64,000 nt of DNA from an uncultured Eubacteriales bacterium. Lineage in GTDB: Bacteria > Bacillota > Clostridia > Oscillospirales > CAG-272. The stretch is from the NCBI GenBank assembly GCA_934474225.1, contig CAKSLU010000001.1:26599-90598 (forward strand). The letters run 5' to 3'. Below are positions 14,754 through 48,857 of the stretch, piece after piece. The notes under the pieces were generated by a model that saw only the letters and a list, made by a program, of their open reading frames with translations, had not been told where the DNA came from and made no database searches. Both the position numbers and the translations under genes were made by a program. Position 1 is the first letter of the stretch, and each line of letters opens with the position of its first letter.

Positions 14754-14772
14754 GTGCGGAAGGACGGTTACC

Positions 14773-20200: not shown

Positions 20201-20722
20201 TACGGCAAATGGGACGCCTACGACATCAGTATGCCGCTGTACAGTGCAAAGCTGGAGGCAAATTACTTCCGGGATGTGAAAATGGTCGTCTCCGAGCTGA
20301 CGCGCGCGGATGACAAGCCGATTCTGTTTGTCAGCGGTTCGTTTGACGATGCGGCGACGGTCGCGCTATATGAGACGGACGAGGTGCCCTCCGCTCTGCA
20401 CGGCAGGAAGATTTTTGCCGGATACAAGGCGGAGATCAGCGCTGCGGCAGCAGAATCCTACACGGTGCGGTATCTGCCGCAGACCGAAAAGCACAGGGAG
20501 CTGTATGTTGTATACGGGGACAAGTGCGAAAAGGTGAAATATCGCGACTTCGGCAGTTATCTCGAATTCTCGGTGCCTGCCGCCGACTTTGCGCTGTATG
20601 AGGTGCAGACGGACATTTTCCCGTTTGTGCTCGGCGGCGTTTGCGGCGCAGCTCTGCTGCTCGGCATTTGCCTTCTTGCGGCGCACAGTCGCAGAAAAAA
20701 GAAAAAGACTGCAAAGCAATAA
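17198..20722 (+). CDS. large surface protein with GLUG-type repeats, an acidic helical spacer and a C-terminal TM anchor
   Basis: Signal peptide (AAVRKLVAVCLAALVACAPLSVCA). Repeated VGGI(V/A)G..G.....C...G motifs at both ends, a D/A/L-rich centre, and the terminal FPFVLGGVCGAALLLGICLLAAHSRRKKKK. ATG 17198 lies 9 nt after AGGAG, inside the MMPL 3' end. Confidence 0.75.
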   Translation: MNRMRMQAAVRKLVAVCLAALVACAPLSVCAVTAADEAAETQETVSIGTAAEFLDFAEQCKTDTWSQGKHFVLTADIHLKDTAFESIPTFGGVFDGGGHTIDGLALKSNRAHVGLFRYVQESGIVRNLHVVGVVTPEGDARDVGGIVGENSGLIEACSFSGTVTGDTNVGGIAGTVTETGTVRACGFSGTVSGNSFTGGIVGYNFGTVEGAVNRGRVNTTAGDTEETIQDLNINLDAIRSTENVDTATDTGGICGLSKGRVVDCINYGSVGYRSVGYNTGGICGRQSGWMSGCENYGAVRGRKDVGGIAGQAEPYILLEYAEDVLEQINRVFDRVGDILDSSNLREDAALNAALDAVRDSTTDISDAAEKLSEDARRYADALTASVNEAADRLHTAIDEMTDVLDHFSAGMDKFSDAADSFSDCGDSMTAIIDAAKAAKEPLEEAGTDIDDAMQALEKTAKDFSDAFDKLHTGVSSMDEGMAALKAALHKLSDALGDHSDVAEPLDALDAAVGSVADSFGTLGDAADGLADALEALAEQGDVADGLNDLVASVRALAEKLQNIQAAFGDVSDALATLAEDFDAEAFEDSLAKFSSGFDALSKSIADLRLAAEDLQDAADELADVPDYAEDAIRSMQDGLDLLGDGADAFKDGLDGLSDITTELSEKEKIVLPSASEMFGDDPDAFFDKTDALSDAIETLRDSVGDKKDDFYGELDALQAEMRSLRDILKSAYDDSVRADEDGFVEDISDDGSESEARGRIANCKNAGTVDGDINVGGIVGSLAIEYDFDPEDDIKNNGDRTLKYTYKTKCTVVRCKNEGEVTAKKHNAGGIAGLMDFGSVYLCENRGDIATTDGDYTGGIAGKSAGIVRKSLALCNLTGGDYVGGIVGGGKTVSDCLALVHTDGSGRYAGSIAGDADTADLARNRFVSETLGGIDDVSYTGVAEAVDIDTFTAAAKQLLDAEVTFALTFVCDGKTVAVVPFTYGEAISTAQIPAVPTKDGYYGKWDAYDISMPLYSAKLEANYFRDVKMVVSELTRADDKPILFVSGSFDDAATVALYETDEVPSALHGRKIFAGYKAEISAAAAESYTVRYLPQTEKHRELYVVYGDKCEKVKYRDFGSYLEFSVPAADFALYEVQTDIFPFVLGGVCGAALLLGICLLAAHSRRKKKKTAKQ

Positions 20723-21516: not shown

Positions 21517-21600
21517 GCGGGTGTGGCGGAATTGGCAGACGCGCCGGATTTAGGATCCGGTGTCTCCGACATGCAGGTTCAAGTCCTGTCACCCGCACCA
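21517..21600 (+). tRNA. tRNA-Leu (anticodon TAG), CCA encoded
   Basis: Hand-folded: acceptor GCGGGTG/CACCCGC, anticodon stem CCGGA/TCCGG with loop TTTAGGA, long variable arm, T-arm GGTTCAAGTCC, 3' ACCA. Confidence 0.85.
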
Positions 21601-21608
21601 AATTTTAT

Positions 21609-21684
21609 GGGGCATTAGCTCAGCTGGGAGAGCGCAAGGTTCGCAATCTTGAGGTCAGGGGTTCGATCCCCCTATGCTCCACCA
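21609..21684 (+). tRNA. tRNA-Ala (anticodon CGC), CCA encoded
   Basis: Acceptor GGGGCAT/ATGCTCC with the G3:U70 Ala identity pair, D-arm AGCTCAGCTGGGAGAGC, anticodon loop TTCGCAA, T-arm GGTTCGATCC. Confidence 0.9.
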
Positions 21685-22356: not shown

Positions 22357-24501
22357 TCATCCCCCGAAAAGCCTTGCCGCGGTTGCCACAAGGAAGCACA
22401 CAACCGCGCCGACGAGCGTGGGCAGCAGCACGGCGGCAAGCGTGTGGCGGAGGCTGCCGGTTTCCTTCCGGATGGTCATAACTGTGGTGGAGCAGGGCCA
22501 GTGCATCAGCGAAAACAGAATGGTACAGACGGCGGTCAGCGGCGTCCAGCCATTTGCCGTCAGAATTTCGCGTATGGCGGCAAGGTCGCCGACATCGGTG
22601 AGCGTCCCGCCCATGGTGTACGCCATGACGGCGATCGGAATGACGATTTCATTGGCGGGGAAACCGAGGATAAACGCCGTGAGAATGACACCATCCATGC
22701 CGAGCAAGCGTCCGAGCGGGTCAAGAAATGCGGCAATGTGCGCAAGCAGACTGGCATCGCCGACGGTCACATTGGCAAGCAGCCAAAGCAGCGCGCCGGC
22801 GGGCGCGGCAACAGCGGCGGCGCGTCCGAGCACAAACAACGTGCGGTCGAAGACCGAGCGCACGATAACCTTTCCGATTTGCGGGCGGCGATACGGCGGC
22901 AACTCCAACGTAAAGGAAGAAGGCACGCCGCGCAGCAGCGTTTTGGAGAGCAGCCGGGAGGCAAAGAGCGTCATGCCGACGCCGAGCAGAATGACCGCAG
23001 TCAGCAGCAGTGCGGAGGCAAACGATGCGAAAATGCCGCCGGAAATGCCGACAAAAAAGATGCAGATCAGCGAAATCATGGCGGGAAACCGCCCGTTGCA
23101 GGGGACAAAGCTGTTGGTGAGCACGGCGATCAGCCGCTCGCGCGGCGAATCGATGATGCGGCAGCCGACCACGCCCGCCGCATTGCAGCCGAAGCCCATG
23201 CACATGGTCAGCGCCTGCTTGCCGCAGGCACCGCAGCGCTTGAATGGGCGGTCGAGGTTGTAGGCAATGCGCGGCAGGTAGCCCGAGTCTTCCAAAATCG
23301 TAAACAGCGGGAAGAAAATGGCCATCGGCGGGAGCATCACGGCGACGACGGAGGACAGGACGCGGAAGATGCCGAGGACGAGCAGGTCATGCAGCCAGTT
23401 TGGCGTTTGCAGGTACAAGAGCAGTGCGGACAGCTTGCATTCCAGGAAGGAAAAAGCGGCGGAAAGCCATGCGGACGGCAGGTTCGCGCCGGAAATGGTG
23501 AGCCAGAAGACAAACAGCAGAAGCAAGAGCATGGCAGGGTAACCAAATCTACGCCCGGTCAGAATGGCGTCCAGCTTGCGGTCGCGCGCCGGATAACCGC
23601 CGCGCTTGTTTTGCGTGACGGCGGCGGCGATTTCCGCTGCGCGGCGAACCACGGTGGAGACGATTGCGTCTTTCAGCCGCTCGCCATCCAGATTGCCTGC
23701 CTGCAGAATGCGTTTTGCATCGTCAAGCGCCTCCGTCACTTCTGCATCGGTCAGCAGATTTTTTCCGCAGGCGAGGTTGATTTCATGCAGCATGGACGTG
23801 TCCGGGTCAAGCAGACGCAGCGCAAGCCAACGCGGCGAGAGCTTGTCGGAAAAGGGCGCAAGTGCTGGCAAAAGTGTATCCGCCGCGCGTTCGATGGCAT
23901 CATCGTAGCGAAGCTGCACTGCGGGCGGCGCAGTCGCATGTCCGACCATACTGTCCAGCGCGTCCGTCAGCGCCGTTAGGCTCTTTTTCCTGCGCGCCGC
24001 TGTGCCGACCGCCGGGACGCCGAGCAGAGCGGAGAGTTTTGCAAGGTCGATGTCGATGCCTTTTGACTTTGCCTCGTCCATCATATTGACGCAGACAAGC
24101 ACATGCGGCGTGACCTCGAGCGTTTGCAGAACCAGTCCAAGCCCCCGCTCAAGGCAGGTCGCGTCGCACACCACAATGACCGCGTCCGGGTGACCGAAAC
24201 AGATAAAATTGCGCGCGACCTCCTCCTCGGCGGACTTTGCATAGAGCGAATAGGTGCCCGGAATATCGACGAGCGTATAACTGCGCGCCCGCGTCCTGCA
24301 GATGCCTGCGGCGTTTGACACGGTCTTGCCGGACCAGTTGCCGGTGTGCTGATTCATCCCGGTGAGCGCGTTGAAAATGGTGCTTTTGCCGACATTGGGA
24401 TTGCCGGCAAGCGCGACGGTGGCGGTATCGCGGCGCTGCGCCGCATCCGGGATGCCGCGGTCGAGCGCGCCGCGCCCGACCGCGCCGCGCGTCAGCCCCA
24501 T
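22357..24501 (-). CDS. feoB: ferrous iron transporter FeoB
   Basis: GNPNVGKSTIFNALTG G-domain followed by a polytopic membrane domain. The start overlaps the feoA stop by 10 nt, with a GGAGG SD. Confidence 0.93.
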   Translation of the reverse strand: MGLTRGAVGRGALDRGIPDAAQRRDTATVALAGNPNVGKSTIFNALTGMNQHTGNWSGKTVSNAAGICRTRARSYTLVDIPGTYSLYAKSAEEEVARNFICFGHPDAVIVVCDATCLERGLGLVLQTLEVTPHVLVCVNMMDEAKSKGIDIDLAKLSALLGVPAVGTAARRKKSLTALTDALDSMVGHATAPPAVQLRYDDAIERAADTLLPALAPFSDKLSPRWLALRLLDPDTSMLHEINLACGKNLLTDAEVTEALDDAKRILQAGNLDGERLKDAIVSTVVRRAAEIAAAVTQNKRGGYPARDRKLDAILTGRRFGYPAMLLLLLFVFWLTISGANLPSAWLSAAFSFLECKLSALLLYLQTPNWLHDLLVLGIFRVLSSVVAVMLPPMAIFFPLFTILEDSGYLPRIAYNLDRPFKRCGACGKQALTMCMGFGCNAAGVVGCRIIDSPRERLIAVLTNSFVPCNGRFPAMISLICIFFVGISGGIFASFASALLLTAVILLGVGMTLFASRLLSKTLLRGVPSSFTLELPPYRRPQIGKVIVRSVFDRTLFVLGRAAAVAAPAGALLWLLANVTVGDASLLAHIAAFLDPLGRLLGMDGVILTAFILGFPANEIVIPIAVMAYTMGGTLTDVGDLAAIREILTANGWTPLTAVCTILFSLMHWPCSTTVMTIRKETGSLRHTLAAVLLPTLVGAVVCFLVATAARLFGG

Positions 24502-24734
24502 ACGGCGCCTCCGCGCTCAACGGCAATCCGACTGCAGTCCTCGGCACGCAGGGCAATGACCGCGCCGCGAATCAGATAGGCGCGCGGGTCTCCTGCGGGG
24601 CTTCTGCCGACGCATTCAACCTCGGTGCCCTCAATCAGGCCCATGTCCAGCAGGCGGCGGCGAAGTGCGCCGCAGGTGCTTTGCGAAACGACGCGCGCGC
24701 GTTCGCCGGGTGCAATATCATTCAGGCAATACAT
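24492..24734 (-). CDS. feoA: FeoA family protein
   Basis: 80 aa, LNDIAPGERARVV...LLDMGLIEGTEVECV...I.GAVIALR, an SH3-like FeoA pattern. I trimmed the start to ATG 24734. Confidence 0.85.
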   Translation of the reverse strand: MYCLNDIAPGERARVVSQSTCGALRRRLLDMGLIEGTEVECVGRSPAGDPRAYLIRGAVIALRAEDCSRIAVERGGAVWG

Positions 24735-24824
24735 AATTCTCGTGACCTCGTAATACAAGTTTAGTGTTGGGAAACTTTCTTTCCTACTTCCATTGTATTG
24801 TGGAGCCCCGAATTTTGTGAGGAG

Positions 24825-25259
24825 ATGATGCATTTGAGCGCCGCGAATGGGTTTTACACGCTGAAGGGATACCAGCTGATTGAGAGCGACGAGCTGACGC
24901 CTGCCATGCAGGATTACCTTGAGATGATTTATCGCCTGTCGGCAAACAGCAGCATTGTGCGCATCAGCACACTGGCGGCGGAGCTGCATGTGCGCCCCTC
25001 GTCCGCCTCAAAGATGGCGTCGAACCTCGCGGAGGCCGGGTATATCCTCTATGCCCGCTACGGCTATATCCGCCTTGCCGAAAAAGGGCAGGAGACCGGG
25101 CGCTATCTGCTGCATCGGCATGAGGTCATCCATCGGTTTCTCTGCCTTGCCAATCATACAACGGATGAACTGAGGCAGACAGAGAAAATCGAGCATTTCC
25201 TCGATTTTCGCACCGTGCGGAACCTGGAAGCGCTGTGTGAGCGGCTGAAAGAAAAATAA
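24825..25259 (+). CDS. DtxR/MntR family metal-dependent transcriptional regulator
   Basis: LTPAMQDYLEMIYRL...VRISTLAAELHVRPSSASKMASNLAEAGYI...RHEVIHRFL. It lies divergent from feoAB. The start is ambiguous among ATG 24825, ATG 24828 and TTG 24834. Confidence 0.8.
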   Translation: MMHLSAANGFYTLKGYQLIESDELTPAMQDYLEMIYRLSANSSIVRISTLAAELHVRPSSASKMASNLAEAGYILYARYGYIRLAEKGQETGRYLLHRHEVIHRFLCLANHTTDELRQTEKIEHFLDFRTVRNLEALCERLKEK

Positions 25260-25287
25260 AAAGCGCCATCGGCGCTTTTTATTTTTT
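25260..25287. terminator. bidirectional intrinsic terminator
   Basis: AAAGCGCC atc GGCGCTTT flanked by A-run and T-run. It sits between convergent genes. Confidence 0.8.
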
Positions 25288-26101
25288 ACGTTAATGGGTC
25301 GGCACTGTAACGCTTGCGGTATTCACTGGGCGAGGTGCCGACCTCTTTTTTGAAGACAACGCTGAAATAATACAGGCTGGAAAAGCCGAGCGCTTCTGCG
25401 ATGTCGGTAAGCCGCTCGTTGCTGTAGCGCAGGCGCTCCTGTGCCTGCGTGATGCGCGCCATCGTGATGTATTTGACCGGCGAGATGCCGAAGGCGTCCC
25501 GAAAGGAGCGGCGGAAGTGCGATTCGCTCAGGTGCACGGCGCTTGCCACCTCGGCGATGTTCAGCGCCTCGTCGGCGATGTGCGCATCAATGTATTCGAG
25601 GGCGGCGTCCATGCGCTTGCGCTTGGCGGAGGGGAGGTAGGTCGCGCCGTGCGCCGAGCACAGAAAGTCGGAATAGGCGGCATACAGCATAGAGAGGCAG
25701 TCCACTTTGACCGTGGGGCGCTGCAGGCACCAGACTTCCCGCATGCGGCGGAACAGCTTTTCCGTATTCTTGCCGCCGACCGAGGGGTAGAGCGCGCAGC
25801 GCAGGGCGGTGCCCGACGGCAGTCGGAAGTCGAAATTCGCAAAAAAGACCACATAGGGCGCATCGTAAACATCCATAGAATAGACGCTGTCGCGGGCGAG
25901 GAAAAAGATGTCGCCCGGCTTTGCGTCAAAGGCGTAGCTGCCGAAATCATAGTGCGTCCTGCCGCTGATAACATAGATAAGGCCGTCCGAGCGCCGTCCG
26001 GGTGCGCGCGCCGGGATAAAACTTTTGTGAATCGTGGTGCTGACTGCGCGGTGAAATTTGTCGATAACAGGCGTAAGCGCCGACAGTTCTGCGTACTCCA
26101 A
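25286..26101 (-). CDS. AraC family transcriptional regulator (cupin sensor + HTH)
   Basis: C-terminal AEVASAVHLSESHFRRSFRDAFGISPVKYI...IAEALGFSSLYYFSVVFKKEVGTSPSEYR. I propose TTG 26101 as the start, 6 nt after GGAGGTG. Confidence 0.85.
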   Translation of the reverse strand: MEYAELSALTPVIDKFHRAVSTTIHKSFIPARAPGRRSDGLIYVISGRTHYDFGSYAFDAKPGDIFFLARDSVYSMDVYDAPYVVFFANFDFRLPSGTALRCALYPSVGGKNTEKLFRRMREVWCLQRPTVKVDCLSMLYAAYSDFLCSAHGATYLPSAKRKRMDAALEYIDAHIADEALNIAEVASAVHLSESHFRRSFRDAFGISPVKYITMARITQAQERLRYSNERLTDIAEALGFSSLYYFSVVFKKEVGTSPSEYRKRYSADPLT

Positions 26102-26210
26102 ACCAATCACCTCCGGTTCTATTAAAGCAGAAAACAACAAACAAATCAAGCAATTTCGGAAAAACACACAACTTCAGGGTCGAAAATTATAAATCTGCGC
26201 GAAAGTCGGA

Positions 26211-26239
26211 TTTACAATTCACGCACAGGGGGCTATGCT
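26211..26239 (+). promoter_or_regulatory. candidate promoter for the glycyl-radical enzyme gene
   Basis: TTTACA (26211-26216), 17-nt spacer, TATGCT (26234-26239). Confidence 0.4.
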
Positions 26240-26288
26240 GTAGGCAGAAAAAGATTTCACCTTGGTGATTTACATGGAGGAAAAAATC

Positions 26289-28496
26289 ATGTATACTGAA
26301 TTCTACAAGGATCGCCCCTATATTCAAAATGAATATGAAGAAGCGGATTGGAACACTGCAAGCGGCCTTGAACCGCGCGTAATTGATCGGATGATTCGCG
26401 ATTTTGCCGCGGCAAATCCGAAAATGCCCGCGCCGCTGGTGATGGCGCACGGCTACAGACTGCTGCTGGAAAATGCACAGCTTTCGCTGAATGTGCACAC
26501 CATGTTCCCGGATAAACTGCGCCACGGCGGCGAATACAAGACGGTCGCGACGCAGAGCGTGCTGGAAACCTACAGCCGCGAGCGGTATGAGAACGCGCTG
26601 ATGCGCGGCTGCCCCGCCATCCGCTCGGAGCGGAATGTGCTGCGATTCTCCGGTGTTGCCGTGCCGGATACCGATGTATGGCACACCGTTGTGGACTGGA
26701 GTGAGGTGCTTCGCCTCGGCGCCCCCGGGCTGCTGCACCGCGCCGAAGAAGCAAAGCGCGCAAAGCAGGCGGACGGCACGCTCACGGACAGACAGTCTGT
26801 TTTTTATGATTCTGTCATTATCGCCTTTACCGCCATGCTGACCTACATGCGCCGTCTGCTTGCCGAGGCGGAGCGCGTCGGCTGCACACGCTATGCAGAA
26901 GCGCTGCAGAATTTGCTTGTCGCACCGCCAAAGACACTCTACGAAGTGCTCTGCCTGTCGCACATCATGCTGAATGCGGAGGAGCTGGGCAGAGAGCGCT
27001 GCCGCAGCTATGGCGCGGTTGACGAGCTGTATACGCCTTATTTCGTCGCCGACCTGGAGAGCGGCAGAGAGACCGAAGATTCCGTCCGTGAAATGTTCCG
27101 CTACTTCTGGCAGAAAGTCACCGCAGAGAAGCGCTATGCCGACCAGCCGATTTGCATCGGCAAGGCATGGACATCCGACGACTGCCCGGCAGCACGCCTG
27201 ACGGTGCTGATGCTGGAGGCGTACAAGGAACTGGACATTCACAACCCGAAGATTCACATCCGCTGCAAAAAGGACATGTCCGACAAGCTGCTCGGCATAC
27301 TCTGCGAAATGATTCGCGACGGCAATTCGTCGGTGGTGCTGCTGAATGACGAGACCATACTCACCGGCTATGAGCGCCTCGGCATTCCGCGCGAGATTGC
27401 AAAGGACTATATTCCGACCGGTTGCTACGAGCCGGTGATTCCGGGGCTTGAGGACGCGCGCATCTGCGCCTCCTGGATCAGCCTTGCCAAGGCGTGCGAA
27501 TATGCCATCACCGGCGGTCGCGACCTTCTGACGCATCTGTATGTCGGCATGCATACCGAGGAGCCGAAGACCTGGGATGAATTCTTAAGTACCTATTATG
27601 CATACCTCGCCGAGCACTGCGCCATGGTCATCAACAATGTCAATGAGCAAGCACGGTTTGCCTATGCGGCAAATCCGTCGCCGTACTATTCCGGCACGAT
27701 CGCGACCTGCATGGAGAGCGGCAAGGATGTGTTTGACGGCGGCATGACCTATCGCAACCAGTCCATCAAGTGCTTTGCCATTGCAACGGCGGTGGATTCG
27801 CTGCTGACGGTCAAGAAGTTTGTATTTGAGCGCCGCCGCGTGACCCTTGCGGAGCTGCGCACGATTCTGGAAAACAACTGGGCGGGCGCAGAAAACCTGC
27901 GCGCGGAGATTCTGCACGACCCCGTCAAATACGGCAACCACATTGCGGAGGCGGATGCCCTCGCGCACGACATTTACGATTTCTGCGCCGCGCAGATCGT
28001 CGGCAAACCGACCTCGACCGGCGGTGTGTTCCGCCTCGGCTGCGACTCGGTCAACATGGTTTCCGGCTACGGGATGCGGACCGGCGCAAGCGCGGACGGC
28101 CGCATGGCACGCGCGGAGTTGTCCAAGAACATGCGCCCCACCAACGGCATGGAAAAGCATGGTGTGACGGCGTTTATCCAGTCGGTCTGCGCCATTGACA
28201 ACTGCAATTTCACCGACGGCGCGCCGCTGGACTTCATCGTGCATCCTTCCGCCGTCGAGGGCGAAGCGGGGCTTGCCGCGATGAAAGCGCTGGTCCGCAC
28301 CTTCTTTGCGGGCGGCGGCTTTGCCATCCAGGGTAATGTCCTCAGTCTGGATACGCTGCGTGACGCGCAGGAGCACCCGGAGAAGTATCCGAACCTGCAG
28401 GTGCGCGTCTGCGGCTGGAACGAATACTTTGTCAATATGAGAAGAGAGGTGCAGGACGATTTCATCCGCCGCAGCGAAGGCATTGAAACCGCCTGA
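26289..28496 (+). CDS. glycyl radical enzyme (PFL2 / dehydratase-lyase-like)
   Basis: C-terminal glycyl-radical motif FAIQGNVLSLDTLRDAQEHPEKYPNLQVRVCGWNEYF (Gly codon 28413-28415). Cys-loop TGCYEP (Cys 27423-27425, Glu two residues later). ATG 26289 lies 7 nt after GGAGGA. Confidence 0.8.
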   Translation: MYTEFYKDRPYIQNEYEEADWNTASGLEPRVIDRMIRDFAAANPKMPAPLVMAHGYRLLLENAQLSLNVHTMFPDKLRHGGEYKTVATQSVLETYSRERYENALMRGCPAIRSERNVLRFSGVAVPDTDVWHTVVDWSEVLRLGAPGLLHRAEEAKRAKQADGTLTDRQSVFYDSVIIAFTAMLTYMRRLLAEAERVGCTRYAEALQNLLVAPPKTLYEVLCLSHIMLNAEELGRERCRSYGAVDELYTPYFVADLESGRETEDSVREMFRYFWQKVTAEKRYADQPICIGKAWTSDDCPAARLTVLMLEAYKELDIHNPKIHIRCKKDMSDKLLGILCEMIRDGNSSVVLLNDETILTGYERLGIPREIAKDYIPTGCYEPVIPGLEDARICASWISLAKACEYAITGGRDLLTHLYVGMHTEEPKTWDEFLSTYYAYLAEHCAMVINNVNEQARFAYAANPSPYYSGTIATCMESGKDVFDGGMTYRNQSIKCFAIATAVDSLLTVKKFVFERRRVTLAELRTILENNWAGAENLRAEILHDPVKYGNHIAEADALAHDIYDFCAAQIVGKPTSTGGVFRLGCDSVNMVSGYGMRTGASADGRMARAELSKNMRPTNGMEKHGVTAFIQSVCAIDNCNFTDGAPLDFIVHPSAVEGEAGLAAMKALVRTFFAGGGFAIQGNVLSLDTLRDAQEHPEKYPNLQVRVCGWNEYFVNMRREVQDDFIRRSEGIETA

Positions 28497-28513
28497 GAAA
28501 AAAGGAGAACCAT

Positions 28514-31500
28514 ATGAACCGAAGCAGGATGCAGAAATACCGCCGCCTCTTTCCCGTGATGCTGCTTGCCTTTGCGCTCATCTTTGCGCTTGCCGTGTGC
28601 GCCGCGGAAAAGACGGTTTACCTCGGCGCGTCGGATGCGGCGGAAGGCAACGGCAGCGAGGCTGCACCGTTTGCCTCCCTTGCCAAAGCGATTGAAGCTG
28701 TGCAGAGCGGCGGCAGAATCGTTGTCACCGAGACGTATACGGTGACCGAGCGGGATGCCGTCACCGCGGATATACCTCGATTTCTTTCGCCGACGCACGA
28801 AGGGAAGATTACCATCACTTCGCTCGACGGCAAGTTGGACTATCGGCGGGGCGGGGCGTGCATCTACTTCCCGGAGACCTATATCTATGAGTGCGGCGGT
28901 GATGTCCGCTTTGAAAATGTCACGCTGAAAAACGACGCCGCGCCCATTTACCTTGCAGGCAATTTTCACGCGCTGGAATTCGGCGAGGGCTTTGATGTCA
29001 AGAACACAAAGGGCGCTGCCAAGTACCTCTATGTCATCGGCGGCTACTATGCGCCGCGCAGCAAGGACTTTCCTGCAGACCGGGATGCACATATCACCAT
29101 CGACAACGGCAATTTCGCCCGCGTGATTGCCTTCGGCATGGGGAAGGGTGCGGGCACCTACACCTTCACCGGGACGGCGCACATCTACATCCGCGGCGGG
29201 CATATCGACCGCATCTACGGCGGCGCAACGCTGAACCATTATGCGGGCAGCCTTGATTTGCAGGTGCGCGACGGCAGCATCGGCGACATCTATACCTCCG
29301 GCGACGCCACGCGCCGCGCGCTCGGCAATGCGACGGTCGGGCTGTACGGTGGCACGATGCGCACGCTGTATATCAACAACATGCTCGGCAGTACCGAGGT
29401 GACGCTGGACGGCATCAAGCTGAACGGCATACAGGTGACCTTCGGCAGCGAGCAGATTCAGAATCTTGCACACGGCAAGCCGATTCGGCTGCGGTATAAC
29501 TCGCTGCTTTACACGGCGGACTTCGTCGGTGCGGTGGAGGGTATCACTTCTGCCGAACGCTTCGGCGTGCTGTATGTCTCTGCCGACGGGCGCGGCGACG
29601 GCAGCCGGGAGAATCCACTCGGCAGCCTTGCCGATGCCGTCCGACAGTTGGCGGACGGCGGCGGTGACATTGTGCTTGTCGGGGATTATACGGCGGCGGA
29701 TTTTACCGAGCCGACGCATGCACAGCCGATTACCTATCGCGGCGATAGCCTGCTCCTTTCGGGCACATTCACGGCGGGCGGGGATGTCACTTTCGATGCC
29801 ATCACGCTCGGCGGCAGCGGCACGCTTGCGTGCGGCGCGCATAAAGCCATGTTCACCGATGCGTGTGTGACGGACGGCACATTCGCTCTCACGGGCGATG
29901 ACCTTGCCGTGTCCGGCAGCAGTTTTACGTCGGTGCGCGGCAGTAAACTCACATGGGCGGGCGGCGCAACGAAAACCGTCACACTGTCGGACGACGCATC
30001 GCTTGTGCAAAGCGGCGGCAGAATCGCCTCGCTGACGCTGACCGGCAACAGCGCGGCTGCAGAGCTGCTCGGCGGCAGCGTGGAAACGATGATTGTCAAA
30101 GATGTTGCGGACAGTTTTCGTCTGACTCTCGGCGGCGGCAGCATAACGGCGCTGACCGTTATGGGCTGTGGGCAAGCCGAGCTTGTGGCATTGCCTGTGG
30201 CGGACGCGGCGCTCGTCGCGCGGCTGTCGCCCGCGTTCTCGGAGGCGGCGACGCAGACGGCGGCATTTGTCCGCGACGGCGGCACCGGCAACGGTTCGTC
30301 ACCGGAGAACGCCGCGCCGACGCTGGCAGACGCTTATGCCATGCTCCCGGATGGTGGCACCATTGTATTGTGCGGCAAGGTGAGCGTGACCGAGAATACC
30401 GCCATGCCGACATCAAACAAGGCGTATACGCTGACCGGCGTGTACGGCGGCGTGGATTACCGCACCTCCGGCGCGGTGCTCTCGCTTGCCGGCAATGTCG
30501 GCTTTTACGCGCCGACTACGCTGGAAAAGCTGAACATCCGCGCGGAGAAAAGCCCGACCTGGATTTCCTTCAACGGAAGCACGGCGCGTATCGGCAAAGA
30601 GGTCGCCTGTGACCTTGCGCCGAATGCGACCACTTATCCGTCCCTTGTCGGCGGCACGCGCAGAAGCAATTTTGCAATTTCCGGCGCGAACCTGACCGTG
30701 GAGAGCGGCAGCTGGTACCAGGTGTACGGCGCAAACACTGCGGCGGCGGACTTCCCGAATCTGCAGACGACGCTGACGATTACGGGCGGCGACTTCTACA
30801 GCCGCGTCTGCGCGATGGGCGCAGGCAATCAGACCGGCGAGGGCGGCCTCACCGTGCGCGGCGGCAATTTCTACGGCGGCGTGTATGGGCTGGCGTCGCT
30901 TGCCACCGAGACCTTTGACGGCAAAATCCGCATCAACCTGGCGGGCGGCAATTTCTACGGCAAGATTCGCGTTGCCACACGGTATGAGACCACCGTGGAC
31001 GGCAACTTTGATTTGACGGTTTCGGGCGGCGACTACTCGCATGTGACCGATGTGGTCGGCGGCAGCCGGTTCCGCGGCAATGTTGCCTCCACGCTGACCG
31101 CCGCAGACGATACGCTGCTCACGCAGGCGGTAAGCGGCAGTTTCACCTATCAGAACCCCATCCGCAAGACGGCTGACCCGCGTATTGCGCTGGTGGACGG
31201 CATGTATTTCTATATGTTCACCTCCGGCTCTACGCTCAGCATGTACAAGGCGGCAAATGTCGCCGACCTTGCCTATGCGGTAGGGGAGCAGATTTTCGAT
31301 GCGCGCACGGCATCTGACGCGATGGAGACGCGCACGGCATGCATCTGGCCTTCCGAACTGCAATATTTTTCCGCAGAGGAATTCGGCGCGGAAAATGCGG
31401 GCTGGTATCTGTTCTTCTCCACCTTCAGCCGGGAACTGGACGGTCTGCCGTCCACGGCAACCGACGGGCAAAGCCGCCGCAGCTATGTGCTGAAATGCAC

Positions 31501-32638
31501 CTCAAACGACCTGCAGGGCACCTGGGTCAACCCGATTACCGGCGAGGTCGGCGTCCCCGCACGCTTTACGAGCGACACCGAGGACTTTGTCAACACGGTT
31601 GACTGGTGCGCCGGAGAGTCCACGCTGCGTTACGGCGGCAAAACTTATGCGCTCTGGATTGAGCAGCGCGGGCGCGGCACGGCGGACTTTCGCCAGGTGA
31701 TGTATCTCTCCGAGATGAAGAACCCCTGGACCGTGACCGGCAAGGTGCTTGAACTTGTCGCGCCGGAATACGACTGGGAGCGCGAGGGCTACGGCTATGC
31801 CGAGGCGGAGGGGAAGTGGTACCCCGCCGTTATCGAGGGGGCAACGCCGATTGTCGGCGACAACGGTGAACTGCATGTCCTTTACGCATGCAGCGGCTAT
31901 TGGACGACCGGGTATAAACTTGGGCAGATGACCTATCTCGGCGGCGACCTGCTGGCGAAGGAAAACTGGAAGAAGTCGCCGCAATCTGTCTTCTCCAAAA
32001 ACGATGAAGTGTGCGGCGTCGGCGGCCCTTCGATCTTCACATCGCCAAGCGGCAAGATGCGCTGCATCCTGTATCACGGCTACCTCGGCAAAGATACGTC
32101 AAGCGGGCGCTACTGCTTCATGGAGCCGTATACCGTGGATGCGGACGGCGTGCACATCGGCAAGGACGGGCATCCGTCCCCGCTGACGACCACATTTACC
32201 GTGCCGCTGAACACCATGCCGCTCGGCGCAAAGGTTTGCGGATTTGACAACCTCGGCATGACGCGCGTCAAGCTGAAAATCGGCAGTCATACCGGCAGCG
32301 TCAACGAAGCGGAGGCGCAGCTGGACGCAGCGCCGGTCATCCGCAACAACCGCACCATGCTGCCTGCGCGCTTTGTGGCGGAATCCTTCGGTGCTGAGGT
32401 CACCTGGGACGGCGCGACAAGCACGGCGAAGTTTGTCGCAAAAGACGGGACGGTCATATCCATCCGCATCGGTGCGGCACAGGCTGTCGTCAGCGGCAAA
32501 ACCGTCGCGCTCGACACCCCTGCCTACATTGATGCCGCAAGCGGCAGAACCTATCTGCCCGTGCGGTTCCTCGCCGAGTCGCTCGGCGCGTTTGTCGTGT
32601 GGAACGGCGAGACCTCTACGGCATATCTGATTCGATAA
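28514..32638 (+). CDS. secreted multidomain wall protein: repeated beta-helix-like modules + GH43-like propeller + Cu-amine-oxidase-N-like wall-binding domain
   Basis: Signal peptide (LLAFALIFALAVCAAE). About 850 aa of G-rich strand repeats (GGNFYGGVYG...). ADPRIALVDGMYFYMF...WYLFFS...YALWIE... propeller motifs. C-terminal LPARFVAESFGAEVTWD ... YLPVRFLAESLGAFVVWN tandem stalk repeats. It starts 17 nt after the GRE stop, with a GGAGAA SD. Confidence 0.8.
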   Translation: MNRSRMQKYRRLFPVMLLAFALIFALAVCAAEKTVYLGASDAAEGNGSEAAPFASLAKAIEAVQSGGRIVVTETYTVTERDAVTADIPRFLSPTHEGKITITSLDGKLDYRRGGACIYFPETYIYECGGDVRFENVTLKNDAAPIYLAGNFHALEFGEGFDVKNTKGAAKYLYVIGGYYAPRSKDFPADRDAHITIDNGNFARVIAFGMGKGAGTYTFTGTAHIYIRGGHIDRIYGGATLNHYAGSLDLQVRDGSIGDIYTSGDATRRALGNATVGLYGGTMRTLYINNMLGSTEVTLDGIKLNGIQVTFGSEQIQNLAHGKPIRLRYNSLLYTADFVGAVEGITSAERFGVLYVSADGRGDGSRENPLGSLADAVRQLADGGGDIVLVGDYTAADFTEPTHAQPITYRGDSLLLSGTFTAGGDVTFDAITLGGSGTLACGAHKAMFTDACVTDGTFALTGDDLAVSGSSFTSVRGSKLTWAGGATKTVTLSDDASLVQSGGRIASLTLTGNSAAAELLGGSVETMIVKDVADSFRLTLGGGSITALTVMGCGQAELVALPVADAALVARLSPAFSEAATQTAAFVRDGGTGNGSSPENAAPTLADAYAMLPDGGTIVLCGKVSVTENTAMPTSNKAYTLTGVYGGVDYRTSGAVLSLAGNVGFYAPTTLEKLNIRAEKSPTWISFNGSTARIGKEVACDLAPNATTYPSLVGGTRRSNFAISGANLTVESGSWYQVYGANTAAADFPNLQTTLTITGGDFYSRVCAMGAGNQTGEGGLTVRGGNFYGGVYGLASLATETFDGKIRINLAGGNFYGKIRVATRYETTVDGNFDLTVSGGDYSHVTDVVGGSRFRGNVASTLTAADDTLLTQAVSGSFTYQNPIRKTADPRIALVDGMYFYMFTSGSTLSMYKAANVADLAYAVGEQIFDARTASDAMETRTACIWPSELQYFSAEEFGAENAGWYLFFSTFSRELDGLPSTATDGQSRRSYVLKCTSNDLQGTWVNPITGEVGVPARFTSDTEDFVNTVDWCAGESTLRYGGKTYALWIEQRGRGTADFRQVMYLSEMKNPWTVTGKVLELVAPEYDWEREGYGYAEAEGKWYPAVIEGATPIVGDNGELHVLYACSGYWTTGYKLGQMTYLGGDLLAKENWKKSPQSVFSKNDEVCGVGGPSIFTSPSGKMRCILYHGYLGKDTSSGRYCFMEPYTVDADGVHIGKDGHPSPLTTTFTVPLNTMPLGAKVCGFDNLGMTRVKLKIGSHTGSVNEAEAQLDAAPVIRNNRTMLPARFVAESFGAEVTWDGATSTAKFVAKDGTVISIRIGAAQAVVSGKTVALDTPAYIDAASGRTYLPVRFLAESLGAFVVWNGETSTAYLIR

Positions 32639-32640
32639 GC

Positions 32641-32681
32641 AAAAAAAAGAATTCCCTTGCATGCAAGGGAATTCTTTTTTT
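32641..32681. terminator. bidirectional intrinsic terminator (26-bp perfect palindrome)
   Basis: A8 GAATTCCCTTGC at GCAAGGGAATTC T7, between convergent genes. Confidence 0.85.
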
Positions 32682-34339: not shown

Positions 34340-34924
34340 TTACTGGTCGTAGGTGCGGATGATATGCTCGGCGACCTCACGGCGGGACAGCCGTGTGTCC
34401 ATCGCCTGCTTTTCGATGTAATAATGCGCATCCTGCTCGGTCATGGAAAGGTGCTCGATCAGCAGCCACTTTGCGCGGTTGACCACGCGGATGTCCTCCA
34501 TCTTTTCCTTCAGCGTGCGGTTCTGCTTTTCCATCTTGGCAAGGCGCGCATGCGTGGCGACCAGCAGTTTTATCGCGATGCAGAAGGTCTGGCGGTTTAC
34601 TGGGCGCGGCAGGGTGAGCACGCCGCTGTCCTCCAGCCGATAGGCGACCTGCTCATACAACTCGCCCTTGCACAAGGCGAGCACGCCGCAGGTGCCCGCG
34701 GCACAGTCGAGTGCAAACTCCGTGCCGAATTCGTCCGGCAGAGGCGTATTGATGATGACGATATCGTAGTCGGTGCTGAGCAGCAGCCGTTTGGCTTCGC
34801 CCGCGCTTGCCACATGCGTGACCGGATCGTATTCGCCGGACGGCAGCAGCTCCCGGATGTAGTCATACGCCTGCGTTCCGGCGGAGACGACCAGCACCCG
34901 ACAGAGCGGTTTGGGTGTCGTCAT
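34340..34924 (-). CDS. ANTAR-domain RNA-binding regulator with atypical (pseudo-)receiver domain
   Basis: C-terminal ANTAR pattern (DIRVVNRAKWLLIEHLSMTEQDAHYYIEKQAMDTRLSRREVAEHII). The N-terminal CheY-like fold has VLVVSAGT in place of the acidic pair and IVIINTPLP in place of the phospho-acceptor Asp. Confidence 0.8.
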   Translation of the reverse strand: MTTPKPLCRVLVVSAGTQAYDYIRELLPSGEYDPVTHVASAGEAKRLLLSTDYDIVIINTPLPDEFGTEFALDCAAGTCGVLALCKGELYEQVAYRLEDSGVLTLPRPVNRQTFCIAIKLLVATHARLAKMEKQNRTLKEKMEDIRVVNRAKWLLIEHLSMTEQDAHYYIEKQAMDTRLSRREVAEHIIRTYDQ

Positions 34925-34930
34925 GGCGGC

Positions 34931-36148
34931 TTACCTCCGCGCGTCGGTCAGAAACGCGGCGGCGTCCTCGCCAAGCACGCGGCGCACGAGCGCGCTGCCG
35001 CTTGCCAGCGAAACAGCCTCGGCGAGGCTGCCCGGCAGCGTGTCAAATTCGCGCGTCTCACTCTCGGGCGCGGTCAGCAGATTGAGATTGACCGCAGGCG
35101 CGGGGCACATGTCCTTTTCAATGCCGTCAAGCCCCGCCCGGATGAGCAGCGCATAGGCAAGATAAGGGTTGGCGGACGGGTCTGGCGAGCGCAGCTCAAT
35201 GCGGCGGTATTCGCCCTTTGCCGCCGGAATGCGAATCAGCTGTGAGCGGTTTTCATGCGACCAGGTGACAAACTTCGGTGCTTTGCATTTGCCGAAGCGG
35301 CTGTAGGACGCCTCACTCGGATTGAGAAAGGCTGTGATGTCGCGGATGTGCGCGAGGATACCTGCCATGAAGGCGGGGGTGCGGTCGGTACCGTCGTCGC
35401 ATTTCACCGACATGTTGATGTGCAGTCCGTTGCCGCTCTCGTTTTCCAGCGGCTTCGGCGAGAAGTCGGCATACAGACCGTTTTGCGTTGCAGTTGCCTT
35501 GACCACCGTGATGAAGTTCATCGCATCGTCGGCGGCGCGCATCGCGTCGCTGTAGCGGAAGTCAATCTCGTTTTGCCCTGGCCCCTCCTCGTGATGTGAG
35601 CTTTCGGGCTGAATGCCCATGTCCAGCAGGGTGAGGCAAATTTCGCGGCGCACATTCTCGCCCTTGTCCTCGGGCGCGACATCCATGTAGGTTGCATGGT
35701 CAAACGGAATCTTGGTCGGGTCGCCGTTTTCATCCGTTTTGAAGAGGTAAAACTCGATTTCCGCGCCGAACTGCACCGTTACGCCCGCAGCTTTCGCATC
35801 GGCAACGGCGCGGCGCAGAATGGCGCGCGTGTCGCGCGCAAACGGCGTGCCGTCCGGGTGACGGATGTCGCAGAACATGCGCACGACCTTGCCGTGCGAA
35901 GGACGCCAGGGCAGCACATTCAGCGTGGATGGGTCGGGAAACAGCAGAAGGTCGGACTTTTCTGCACTGCCGAAGCCGCAGATGGCAGAGGCATCAAACG
36001 AAATGCCGTCCTCAAACGCGCGGCGCAGTTCACTCGGCAGAATGGAGATGTTCTTCTGTCTGCCGTGCGTGTCGCAAAAGGCAAGGCGGATGAACTTGAC
36101 ATCCTCTTCTTTCACAAAGTCGAATACCTCTTGTGCCGTGTACATCAT
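34931..36148 (-). CDS. glnA: glutamine synthetase (short type I-like, 405 aa)
   Basis: FIRLAFCDTHGRQK, FGAEIEFYLF, SSHHEEGPGQNEIDF, SGNGLHINMS, NRSQLIRIP, RIELRSPD motifs of GS. GGAGGG SD. Confidence 0.9.
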   Translation of the reverse strand: MMYTAQEVFDFVKEEDVKFIRLAFCDTHGRQKNISILPSELRRAFEDGISFDASAICGFGSAEKSDLLLFPDPSTLNVLPWRPSHGKVVRMFCDIRHPDGTPFARDTRAILRRAVADAKAAGVTVQFGAEIEFYLFKTDENGDPTKIPFDHATYMDVAPEDKGENVRREICLTLLDMGIQPESSHHEEGPGQNEIDFRYSDAMRAADDAMNFITVVKATATQNGLYADFSPKPLENESGNGLHINMSVKCDDGTDRTPAFMAGILAHIRDITAFLNPSEASYSRFGKCKAPKFVTWSHENRSQLIRIPAAKGEYRRIELRSPDPSANPYLAYALLIRAGLDGIEKDMCPAPAVNLNLLTAPESETREFDTLPGSLAEAVSLASGSALVRRVLGEDAAAFLTDARR

Positions 36149-36173
36149 ACCGTTTCCCTCCGCGCATTTTTAT

Positions 36174-36230
36174 AAAAAGAGAGAAGGATGCCGGCTACAA
36201 GGGCAGCGCCCCAAGGTAGCAAACATCCTT
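36174..36230 (-). terminator. leader (attenuator) terminator upstream of glnA
   Basis: Minus strand: AAGGATG...GCTAC...GGG gcgctg CCC...GTAGC...CATCCTT followed by CTCTCTTTTT. It lies between the glnA promoter and the glnA SD. Confidence 0.55.
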
Positions 36231-36236
36231 GTTTAC
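36219..36236 (-). promoter_or_regulatory. hexaloop hairpin (loop AAGGAT) overlapping the glnA leader terminator; candidate ANTAR target
   Basis: Minus strand: GTAAAC AAGGAT GTTTGC. Loop position 1 is A and position 4 is G. The loop and 3' arm form the 5' arm of the terminator. Confidence 0.45.
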
Positions 36237-36242
36237 CTTAAA

Positions 36243-36271
36243 AGTATACAACGTACCGCCGCGCTTGTCAA
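36243..36271 (-). promoter_or_regulatory. sigma-70-type promoter for glnA
   Basis: Minus strand: TTGACA (36271-36266), 17-nt spacer, TATACT (36248-36243). Confidence 0.6.
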
Positions 36272-36422
36272 TAAAAAAGTTTCAAAAAAAGACATGTTTT
36301 TTCATACGCTGCGCTGCTTGAAAAATGGCGGTTTTTCATCGTCGCTTTGCAGCGAAACGCGCGCTTTTTACCTCGCTGTATCGTGCAGATTTCACAGAGC
36401 GAAAATTTTTTTCAAAAAATGC

Positions 36423-36451
36423 TTGACAAGCCTTTTTTTCGGTGCTATAAT
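36423..36451 (+). promoter_or_regulatory. sigma-70-type promoter for the glnN-amt-asnB unit
   Basis: TTGACA (36423-36428), 17-nt spacer, TGnTATAAT (36443-36451). Confidence 0.65.
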
Positions 36452-36463
36452 CTCACCCATAAA

Positions 36464-36479
36464 GCGACAAGGGAGCCGC
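36464..36479 (+). promoter_or_regulatory. hexaloop hairpin (loop AAGGGA) overlapping the leader terminator; candidate ANTAR target
   Basis: GCGAC AAGGGA GCCGC, with one A-C mismatch. The 3' arm is shared with the terminator 5' arm. Confidence 0.45.
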
Positions 36480-36515
36480 GGACGAAGTTTTTTCGTCTGC
36501 GGTTTTCTCATTTTT
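36476..36515 (+). terminator. leader (attenuator) terminator upstream of type III GS
   Basis: CCGCGGACGAA gtttt TTCGTCTGCGG (11 bp, one G-U pair) followed by TTTTCTCATTTTT. It lies 100 nt upstream of the glnN start. Confidence 0.65.
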
Positions 36516-36526
36516 ATGTCACATAC

Positions 36527-36546
36527 GGGCGACAAGGAGGTCGCCC
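36527..36546 (+). promoter_or_regulatory. second hexaloop hairpin (loop AAGGAG) overlapping a downstream CCCGGG-closed stem
   Basis: GGGCGAC AAGGAG GTCGCCC, a perfect 7-bp stem. The 3' arm overlaps stem 36544-36576 (CCCGGG..CGGCG..CGCCG CCCGGG). Confidence 0.45.
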
Positions 36547-36615
36547 GGGCATCGGCGTTTTATGCCGCCGCCCGGGTCTCCCTGCCGCTCAATTTTTATT
36601 TTAAGGAGAAAGAAC

Positions 36616-38709
<2,094 letters not shown>

Positions 38710-38754
38710 ACGGACAGCGCGAGAATTTATAACTTTAAGAAAGAAGATGACGAT

Positions 38755-40515: not shown

Positions 40516-40519
40516 AGCG

Positions 40520-40745
40520 AAACCGAAAGAGTAGCACGGATAAGGTCGGTACAGCGAGCGCGGGATGGTGAGAGCCGCGCGCGGCTCCCGGTGTGAAGAA
40601 CACTTTCGCGGCATGCCGCCACGCGGTTTGCCGTGCTTTCGCAGACAGTTGAATACGAGGGATACCGACGGAATTTTCCGCACGGATAATACAGGTGGCA
40701 CCGCGGGCAGCACAGCTCGTCCTGTGAAACAAACGATGTGCCGTG
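40520..40745 (+). promoter_or_regulatory. T-box leader, probable Asn (AAC) specifier
   Basis: Stem I base AGCACGG(40533-39)/CCGTGCT(40631-37) preceded by AAAGAGTA. Candidate specifier GAAG-AAC-A (AAC 40599-40601). Stem III CGGAAttTTCCG. T-box sequence ACAGGTGGCACCGCGGG (40691-40707). Confidence 0.75.
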
Positions 40746-40771
40746 ACTGTATGAATTTCGGAGGGATTTCT

Positions 40772-48758: not shown

Positions 48759-48857
48759 GCGGTTTTCCCCCTGATTCAGGATACTTCTATTGTATAATAG
48801 CCTGCATACTGCGACAAGGGAAAAAACGAATGTCAAAAAACGCAGGATTTCCACCCC

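Follow-up and report, generated by a model that had tools for sequence, protein, structure and literature searches.

Glycyl radical enzymes (GREs) perform key anaerobic reactions of the gut microbiota, such as the formation of trimethylamine, H2S, p-cresol and propionaldehyde. A 64-kb stretch of DNA from an uncultured Clostridia bacterium (contig CAKSLU010000001.1, positions 26,599 to 90,598; called here the window, position 1 being its first letter) carries a GRE gene lodged between a divergent AraC-type regulator and the gene of a giant secreted protein, with no recognisable activase. How would such an enzyme receive its radical, and on what would it act in such company? The region concerned, 25286-32681, comprises three genes: the AraC regulator on the minus strand, and the GRE and the giant protein on the plus strand. 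The answer favoured here, which we consider probable on balance, is an AraC-controlled glycan-utilisation module that combines a GRE activated in trans with a surface glycosidase; any specific substrate would have to be named with much lower confidence.

The glycyl radical enzyme and its clade

The GRE gene (26289..28496, plus strand) encodes a CXE-type enzyme of 735 amino acids (aa), with Pfam matches to PFL-like (PF02901, 8.3e-79) and Gly_radical (PF01228, 1.6e-24); on identical contigs in public databases, gene callers place the start at the same codon. An original prediction, made from the letters of the window, had pointed to an intact glycyl-radical motif RVCGW and to a Cys-x-Glu loop, and both are found exactly where it placed them. 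The radical glycine is Gly709 (codon 28413-28415, loop RVCGW, extended as RVCGWNE), and the Cys loop GCYEP (G378-C379-Y-E381-P) spans 27420-27434, with Cys379 at 27423-27425 and Glu381 at 27429-27431. A further residue, His132 (codon 26682-26684), lies within a VWHTV motif. The residues of the two catalytic motifs are invariant in 30-51 clade members, His132 is invariant in the clade as well, and Cys379 and Glu381 are present in 30/30 aligned sequences; the alignment that had been proposed as a check for loss of the radical Gly or Cys therefore retains both. Asp129, Arg239 and Glu388 are invariant polar residues of the clade's own. The loop GCYEP also agrees with the earlier statement that the enzyme is not of the Cys-Cys PFL type, as does a TIGR01255 score of 65 bits against a cut-off of 994. 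To judge by these motifs, the window GRE, an oxygen-sensitive radical enzyme, is intact and strongly conserved.

The AlphaFold2 model of the enzyme, obtained with 30 clade members as input (pLDDT 93.5, pTM 0.92), matches 50 GRE chains, all of them solved PFL-like GREs, with TM values of 0.83-0.87 in a Foldseek search of the PDB. Sequence identity to the solved GREs is at most 24-30%, and ≤24% in structural alignment. Of the features that define the PFL-like GRE superfamily (IPR004184), the barrel domain, the glycyl loop and the catalytic Cys are present, and an adjacent activase was not found in the window. Cys379 aligns with Cys433 of glycerol dehydratase (GD), Cys438 of propanediol dehydratase (PD) and Cys434 of HypD. 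The solved eliminases and isomerases retrieved in the fold search measure 772-837 residues (chain sequences of 776-843 aa) against 735 for the window GRE, so that the remark that it is shorter than most characterised GREs stands, but the gap is modest since PFL itself is 759 aa long.

A homologue search covering 5.8 billion proteins returns about 50 proteins, each about 734 aa long and 35-93% identical to the window GRE, followed by an abrupt fall to ≤27%, the level of other GREs. The best NCBIfam match, TIGR01774 (PFL2/glycerol-dehydratase subfamily), reaches 303 bits against a cut-off of 678, the CutC, HypD, HpsG-HpfG and IslA equivalogs 194-264 bits against cut-offs of 1000-1100, and all NCBIfam equivalog models (HpfG, HypD, CutC, PFL and others) stay 4-20 fold under threshold. 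Tight clustering with a characterised GRE, which had been suggested as a test, is thus not observed, at ≤24% structural identity and with no NCBIfam cut-off reached. By sequence, the enzyme is a member of a small uncharacterised clade of ~735-aa CXE-type enzymes. A tree, by neighbour-joining only, separates three GRE clades that can be told apart by their Gly loops: clade A, the window type (RVCGWNE), clade B (RLCGWNV, 35-37% identical to A) and clade C (RV[G/S]GFSA, ~27%).

The nearest solved relatives are the B12-independent GD, Archaeoglobus fulgidus PFL2, PD and HypD. GD (Clostridium butyricum DhaB1, 1R8W/1R9D) and PD (Roseburia inulinivorans, 5I2A/5I2G) are the best sequence matches (phmmer E 3e-66; clade profile versus PDB E 1e-123 for GD and 1e-119 for PD), and they share with the window GRE the barrel fold (TM 0.84-0.87), the Cys-x-Glu loop, a His that corresponds to GD His164 and a C-terminal RVxG loop followed by an aromatic residue. 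In the profile alignment, Cys379, Glu381 and His132 correspond to GD Cys433, Glu435 and His164, and His132 is paired with the GD “vgH” in pairwise and profile alignments alike; in GD, the protonation of the leaving hydroxyl is ascribed to His164 (PMC13450708). The R. inulinivorans PD is tied to sugar catabolism, that of fucose and rhamnose (PMC13450708). In contrast to both dehydratases, the window GRE is 50-100 aa shorter and 23-24% identical in structural alignment, its Gly loop reads RVCGWNE instead of RVAGY, its invariant Asp129, Arg239 and Glu388 are its own, and it lies outside a microcompartment locus, with no adjacent activase here. The replacement of the diol-binding residues and the TIGR01774 score under its cut-off set it apart from glycerol and propanediol dehydratases proper. 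A reading of the substrate from active-site homology was considered and set aside: His132, Cys379 and Glu381 are the only positions with a counterpart among known catalytic residues, and the residues for substrate binding are not the same.

The CXE motif is common to the 1,2-eliminases and to the GRE isomerases HplG, YbiW and PflD (PMC13450708). The earlier description of the loop as a dehydratase/lyase pattern is therefore correct as to the CXE type but too narrow, because the motif marks these isomerases as well; it predicts a start at a carbinol carbon and the loss of a neighbouring heteroatom, and no specific reaction. YbiW and PflD (8ID7/8ID0; 1,5-anhydroglucitol- and 1,5-anhydromannitol-6-phosphate C-O lyases), equally CXE-type and of similar fold (TM 0.83-0.86), are the nearest precedent for a GRE within sugar catabolism. 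Their direct substrates are carbohydrate derivatives: once H has been abstracted from a carbinol carbon, a C-O bond in the ring of the anhydro-sugar phosphate is broken (PMC13450708). The window GRE is 21-22% identical to them. Their genes have phosphotransferase system (PTS) and aldolase neighbours and their substrates are phosphorylated cytoplasmic sugars, whereas the window GRE accompanies a secreted GH43-type giant, with no kinase or PTS, and the comparison yielded no evidence of a phosphate-binding site. A. fulgidus PFL2 (2F3O) ranks first among the structural neighbours (E 1e-40, TM 0.86) and second among the profile matches. It is similarly compact (776 aa) and has a W after the radical Gly (RVAGWSAYF), and its function is likewise unassigned (PMC13450708); it differs in being archaeal, 24% identical and placed in an unrelated genomic context.

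Loss of the operon activase

The absence of an activase from the 64 kb, as claimed originally, is borne out by four approaches. A CxxxCxxC scan of the window finds the motif in no credible gene, tblastn queries with five clade activases do not go below E 0.27, an activase profile hidden Markov model (HMM) run against 874 six-frame open reading frames (ORFs) of the window returns nothing at E<=10, and Pfam annotation of ~40 window genes includes no Radical_SAM domain. Nor does an activase lie in or next to the operon. The ORF 59722-60696, with its CxxxCxxC-like string, was examined as a hidden activase and rejected: it has a low GC content at third codon positions, partially overlaps the opposite-strand integrase gene and gives no activase HMM or tblastn signal.

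This absence is not a trait of the family, as the window by itself might have suggested. Nearly all relatives have an activase of 293-299 aa (TIGR02494, 318 bits versus a cut-off of 174) directly downstream of the GRE, at a distance of 0-36 nt in almost every one. The exceptions are the window lineage and a group formed by a roe-deer metagenome-assembled genome (MAG) and related contigs (loci L001/L002/L021), from which the operon activase is likewise absent. In the window lineage no member at ≥93% identity has it; since these members come from different studies and lie on more than 20 independent contigs, an assembly artefact is ruled out. In the tree, the sister of the activase-less window lineage is the activase-positive locus L019, and L001/L002/L021 are nested among the activase-positive L020, L022 and L024. 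Since both activase-less groups sit among activase-positive loci, at least two independent deletions are indicated. Locus L022, with the order GRE-activase-giant, has exactly the window layout plus the activase. Tree and gene order together indicate that the operon activase was lost secondarily in the window lineage.

The GRE is the most constrained gene of the cluster and is under strong purifying selection. In four activase-less species-level members, its ratio of nonsynonymous to synonymous substitution rates (dN/dS) is 0.05-0.06 at a dS of 0.5-0.6, against 0.13-0.16 for the giant and 0.08-0.15 for AraC in the same four species. In every pair compared, it lies under the values of the giant (0.12-0.26) and of AraC (0.08-0.23, the near-identical window/L016 pair giving an AraC value of 0.23). 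The Gly and Cys loops are identical across the activase-less window lineage. Constraint of this kind would not persist in a GRE incapable of activation, which argues for an activase acting in trans: the window GRE is probably activated by an enzyme encoded elsewhere in the genome.

The family itself offers candidate precedents. L030 and L034 have a clade-B GRE that lacks an activase of its own beside a GRE-activase pair of clade A, and L035 has two GREs ahead of one activase, arrangements in which a single activase may serve two clade GREs. A search with the nearest activase, that of L022, leads to the cluster P0131/P0182, whose 325 members give it an abundance near that of the GRE cluster (438), and whose activase adjoins a clade-B GRE and a giant secreted protein. 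The P0131/P0182 contigs have a GC content of 0.585-0.605 versus 0.580 for the window, and a tetranucleotide correlation with the window (GRE cluster removed) of 0.95-0.97. Loci of the window's own lineage (L012-L015, L017 and L018; the near-identical L011 and L016 left out) give 0.945-0.976, and all other loci ≤0.92. Because composition and abundance match those of the window lineage, this activase is a plausible candidate partner in the same or a sister genome. The NCBI record of the candidate, GCA_964314445.1, is not among the GRE-bearing assemblies seen.

The secreted giant and its conserved association with the enzyme

The gene of the giant protein (28514..32638, plus strand, 1374 aa) follows the GRE gene closely. 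Between the GRE stop codon TGA (28494-28496) and the ATG at 28514 there is a spacer of 17 nt (28497..28513, plus strand) with a Shine-Dalgarno sequence GGAGA at 28504-28508, just as the original prediction described, and a terminator scan reports no terminator-like site between the two genes. Given this spacer and the lack of a terminator before about 32641..32681, GRE and giant genes form one candidate operon. At that position, a bidirectional intrinsic terminator (A-run, perfect palindrome AAGAATTCCCTTGCATGCAAGGGAATTCTT, T-run) lies between the giant gene and a convergent CTP synthase gene. A junction of 15-21 nt is repeated on more than 20 independent contigs of the window lineage. The divergent intergenic region (26168..26288, plus strand) holds a promoter-like TTTACA-17-TATGCT (26211-26239; a consensus match only) and a GGAGG at 26276-26280, 8 nt ahead of the GRE start codon ATG at 26289; an Rfam search of the region upstream of the GRE returns no riboswitch or RNA element.

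The regulator on the other side of this region (25286..26167, minus strand) belongs to the AraC/XylS family and is 293 aa long from the GTG at 26167, gene callers favouring a 271-aa form that starts at 26101. Its Pfam matches are HTH_AraC (3e-23), which falls in two stretches such that both C-terminal helix-turn-helix (HTH) motifs of AraC/XylS regulators are present, and HTH_18 (1e-22). The N-terminal domain gives weak matches below cut-off (AraC_binding E 0.022, 15 bits versus a cut-off of 21; Cupin_2 E 0.059). Of the “cupin-AraC” regulator proposed earlier, the divergent AraC protein with its HTH domains is thus retained, but the cupin part is weakly supported at E 0.02-0.06. Most related loci also have a divergent AraC gene upstream of the GRE. 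We infer from this layout that the AraC, GRE and giant genes are co-regulated.

The giant starts with a predicted signal peptide (aa 1-30, MNRSRMQKYRRLFPVMLLAFALIFALAVCA, followed by AEK; 28514..28603, plus strand), read from the sequence and modelled by AlphaFold2 as a low-confidence N-terminal helix. Three related all-β modules follow, at aa 31-349, 350-582 and 583-870 (28604..31123, plus strand), the delineation of which is based on internal similarity (internal BLAST: E 1e-10 between modules 1 and 3, 6e-7 between 1 and 2, 2e-4 between 2 and 3) and on an AlphaFold2 model that is nearly all strand, with a pLDDT of 91.3. They appear β-solenoid-like. Foldseek against the PDB provides weak β-helix neighbours only (PL6 lyase, tailspikes, pectate lyase; best E 0.059, hence nothing at E<0.05), and no Pfam family matches these N-terminal 870 residues. 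The β-module family counts ~40 proteins, and nearly all its full-length members carry GH43.

In the giant, a GH43-like domain spans aa 876-1197 (31139..32104, plus strand). A phmmer search with this segment returns six GH43 structures at E 2.6e-17 to 4e-11, the nearest being exo-α-1,5-L-arabinofuranosidases of subfamily GH43_26: AtAbf43C (9NXJ/9NXG, 2.6e-17) and SaAraf43A (3AKF, 2.2e-14). The Pfam GH43 model does not match the window protein even at E<=1, and its orthologues carry PF04616. GH43 enzymes use a catalytic triad of an Asp base, a Glu acid and an Asp pKa modulator, as in AtAbf43C (PMC12493170). Every one of 34 family members has the putative base D888 and acid E1108, and the candidate pKa modulator D1030, aligned with AtAbf43C D283, is kept in just 18 of the 34. 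While base and acid are conserved with the GH43_26 enzymes, the similarity is weak (E 1e-17), with large insertions and no CBM42, and the domain is fused behind the three β-solenoid-like modules and ahead of a C-terminal Cu_amine_oxidN1 domain. The GH43_26 substrate specificity should accordingly not be transferred to the giant.

The Cu_amine_oxidN1 domain (aa 1263-1371; 32300..32626, plus strand; PF07833, E 9.2e-47) presumably retains the giant at the cell surface, an anchoring role suggested by the SLH domains that take its place at the same end of paralogous family members. The original description of a GH43-like secreted wall protein agrees with the GH43 structure matches and with the signal-peptide-like N-terminus, but its “wall protein” element goes back to weak or indirect matches.

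The window contains other proteins related to this theme. A small GH43 protein of ~310 aa (8011-8940, minus strand; Pfam 4.5e-25) might act as a partner in the cytoplasm, processing oligosaccharides after import. An 899-aa ORF (46179-48878, minus strand) is weakly related to the β-modules of the giant (26-30% identity, E 1e-7 to 1e-8). Next to it is a protein of 822 aa, M14 carboxypeptidase-like and with a dockerin at its C-terminus (43769-46237, minus strand), and dockerin-bearing proteins also adjoin the clade-B GRE loci L044 and L049.

How general is the coupling of GRE and giant? The GRE 90% cluster counts 438 member sequences, with many human-gut assemblies, and a MAG, HGM12662 (CAAFBM01), encodes a GRE 99% identical to that of the window. 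A scan of GTDB representatives gives 28 GRE loci, all in MAGs of uncultured Clostridia, Eubacteriales or Oscillospiraceae; the sources of GRE loci are human (including Hadza), roe deer, goat rumen, rabbit and chicken. In 43 loci, the GRE, activase, AraC, three parts of the giant and a 474/488-aa lipoprotein were mapped by tblastn, and the called genes were inspected as well. The recurrent layout is a divergent AraC gene, then GRE, activase, an optional lipoprotein (p474/p488) and a secreted giant with β-modules and GH43 that ends in Cu_amine_oxidN1 or SLH. It is illustrated, in many arrangements, by L020, L022, L024, L003, L033, L019, L023, L029, L031 and L041. In L003, L033 and L038 the giant and the lipoprotein are placed upstream. 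Both are replaced by a BNR/sialidase-like giant in L007/L008 and by α-amylase and SLH proteins in L005; ABC sugar-type transporter genes take the place of the giant in L009/L010, and L044-L057 have giants of 2200-2970 aa without Pfam matches. Clade A (many loci), B (L023) and C (L029, L031, L041) GREs lie directly upstream of an activase followed by β-module giants, which bear GH43 in clades A and C.

The association of a GRE with a GH43-type giant is thus seen in ~40 loci, from at least 24 species-level MAGs and all three GRE clades: GRE and secreted glycan-active protein form a conserved and repeatedly re-assorted pair. Because GRE-activase pairs of three clades repeatedly adjoin secreted glycan-active giants, the link drawn in the original prediction between extracellular glycan cleavage and radical chemistry gains support from synteny, but from synteny only; the window cluster has no transporter, kinase or downstream aldehyde-handling gene. 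A full-text literature search found no publication linking a GRE to GH43 or arabinofuranosidase loci in this way. The clade, its coupling to the giants and the operon-level loss of the activase with retention of the GRE appear neither in the results of that search nor in the 2026 GRE review (PMC13450708).

Some of these loci have features of their own. The clade-C loci (L029 925-3634, L031 1948-4624, L041 912-3621) encode shorter GREs with the Gly loop RV[G/S]GFSAYF and the Cys loop GC[A/T]E. They have their own activase and lie directly upstream of β-module-GH43 giants, mirroring the window arrangement. Several genomes (L023, L027, L028) carry two or three GRE-activase pairs in tandem. With L030, L034 and L035, these loci (L027 and L028 being MGYG-HGUT-00388 and -04159) form tandem arrays of 2-3 GRE(-activase) units of different clades that include activase-less GREs beside a GRE-activase pair, which suggests family expansion and activase sharing. 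The lipoprotein family of 474-488 aa (L001 12240-13664, L003 5705-7171 and homologues), with an N-terminal lipobox, is frequent in the clusters of relatives and absent from the window; searches of Pfam, NCBIfam and the PDB give no match to p474/p488 apart from SBP_bac_1 at E 9e-4.

Proposed mechanism, alternatives and further features of the window

The region would represent a three-gene substrate-inducible glycan-utilisation module of an uncultured human-gut Oscillospiraceae-like Clostridia bacterium. The AraC regulator would control an operon for a cytoplasmic GRE and a 1374-aa cell-surface glycosidase, the latter freeing a sugar or an oligosaccharide from a glycan of plant or host origin, and the product or a derivative would be imported by functions encoded elsewhere. 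The Gly709 radical would then generate a thiyl radical at Cys379, and this would remove H from a carbinol carbon in a substrate derived from carbohydrate. Glu381 may deprotonate the substrate hydroxyl and His132 protonate the neighbouring oxygen leaving group, resulting in C-O cleavage, by dehydration or by ring-opening isomerisation. The operon would descend from an ancestral order GRE - activase - (lipoprotein) - giant, from which the activase was deleted with the GRE still functional, and the radical would be installed in trans, most likely by the activase paired with a paralogous clade GRE. For the enzyme itself, our best guess is a C-O eliminase or isomerase of the CXE type with a carbohydrate-derived product as its substrate, and we infer both the carbohydrate nature of the substrate and the C-O cleavage chemistry from the context and motifs set out above.

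Several observations weigh against this proposal. According to the annotation of the window genes, the cluster has no transporter, kinase, aldolase, aldehyde dehydrogenase or microcompartment gene, so that the path from an extracellular product to a cytoplasmic substrate is left undefined; of the components of a Gram-positive polysaccharide utilisation locus (PUL), a regulator and a glycoside hydrolase are found in the window, and a transporter or binding protein is not. Where GD has its substrate-binding residues His281, Ser282 and Asp447, the profile alignment shows Arg237, Cys238 and Cys393 in the window GRE, and homology does not reveal a substrate. Among paralogous loci, the giants next to the GRE vary in their catalytic domains (GH43, BNR/sialidase-like, α-amylase, none recognisable), and a single common substrate class is therefore not obvious. 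It is the lack of a transporter, kinase or downstream enzyme in the window cluster and this difference in glycoside hydrolase domains that keep our confidence only moderate. As to activation, P0131/P0182 and the GRE cluster share no contig, sample or assembly accession that we could find and are linked by composition and abundance only. The clade-B partner GRE of the candidate activase has the Gly loop RLCGWNV, which differs from RVCGWNE at 2 of 7 positions. The known GRE activases are as a rule specific, and the cases of cross-activation published to date concern only GREs whose Gly loops are nearly identical (PMC13450708).

The activase deletion admits two other readings. That the GRE is a decaying relic, not activatable any more and merely carried upstream of the giant, would account for a 64-kb window without an activase and for the absence of the operon activase in every member of the window lineage. 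It is nevertheless very improbable, as the ORF is intact on more than 20 independent contigs, Gly709, Cys379, Glu381 and His132 are all kept, and the gene, with a dN/dS of 0.05-0.06 over a dS of 0.5-0.6 in four species without an adjacent activase, is the most constrained of its cluster. The same strong purifying selection would suit a dedicated cognate activase that has been relocated elsewhere in the genome and is not shared with a paralogous GRE; the window spans just 26 kb upstream and 31 kb downstream. This relocation appears quite unlikely to us: the search with the L022 activase shows no abundant stand-alone activase cluster among the best 120 matches listed, a weak negative, and the comparably abundant clusters among these matches, P0131 (325) and P0140 (117), are only 59-60% identical, P0131 moreover adjoining a GRE of its own.

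A different objection concerns the substrate. The adjacency of GRE and glycosidase might be mere syntenic baggage, with an accidentally shared promoter, and the GRE a dehydratase of a small fermentation metabolite such as a diol, an amino alcohol or a sulfonate. Its closest solved relatives are indeed glycerol and propanediol dehydratases, the window cluster has no sugar transporter or kinase, and L004, L032, L037 and L039 show AraC-GRE-activase without a recognisable GH43 giant. Yet the association is repeated in clades A, B and C, which are 27-37% identical to one another, in different gene orders and across many genera-level MAGs; L009/L010 have ABC sugar-type transporter genes where the giant would be; the GD diol-binding residues are not conserved, and the NCBIfam equivalog scores remain 4-20 fold under cut-off. 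We thus regard an accidental adjacency as the less probable account, though one to be kept in mind, and retain the glycan-utilisation module.

Extending this proposal to the whole family, clades A, B and C would be carbohydrate-active cytoplasmic C-O lyases or dehydratases working on giant-released sugars, a new “PUL-embedded” GRE class in which one activase would serve several paralogues in trans; this generalisation is tentative, and we lean against it for the present. If true, the sharing of a single activase would relax the rule of one GRE for one activase. Should the GRE act on a glycan-derived product, a radical step would be added to the catabolism of dietary or host glycans, beyond the “anhydroglycolysis” enzymes YbiW and PflD. 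The two independent activase losses and the loci with two GREs and one activase provide a natural experiment on activase specificity. Such specificity is described as poorly studied in a 2026 review, which also states that whole GRE clades are still without experimental annotation (PMC13450708). The clade is widespread in human-gut metagenomes, as its 438-member cluster illustrates, confined to uncultured Clostridia of gut and rumen, and the first found here to be systematically wired to giant surface glycosidases. New are the clade, the coupling with the giant and the activase loss; the superfamily itself is well known and specialists expect unannotated GRE clades, which makes the surprise a moderate one.

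The remaining neighbours in the window are housekeeping genes: FeoAB with a DtxR-like repressor, CTP synthase, a nitrogen block (ANTAR-GlnA-GSIII-Amt/PII-AsnB), a Na+-decarboxylase cluster, tRNA genes and an integrase. FeoB, FeoA and the divergent DtxR-type iron-dependent repressor (22357-25259) directly adjoin the AraC gene on its left. The 93%-identical relatives keep this flank, and the right flank varies, with CTP synthase in the window and Mbeg1-like/TraX/TfoX in L012 and L013. The nitrogen-assimilation block (34340-42349, both strands) encodes an ANTAR regulator, GlnA, a type III glutamine synthetase and asparagine synthase, and has an ammonium transporter and a P-II domain joined in one 601-aa frame. 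A phage-type integrase occupies a 588-aa open frame at 58310-60073 (minus strand), and a tRNA-Leu(tag)/tRNA-Ala(cgc) pair lies at 21517-21684 (plus strand). Further left, at 14692-20719 (plus strand), are an MMPL-family membrane protein and, after it, a protein of 1187 aa whose only Pfam matches are weak ones of coiled-coil type.

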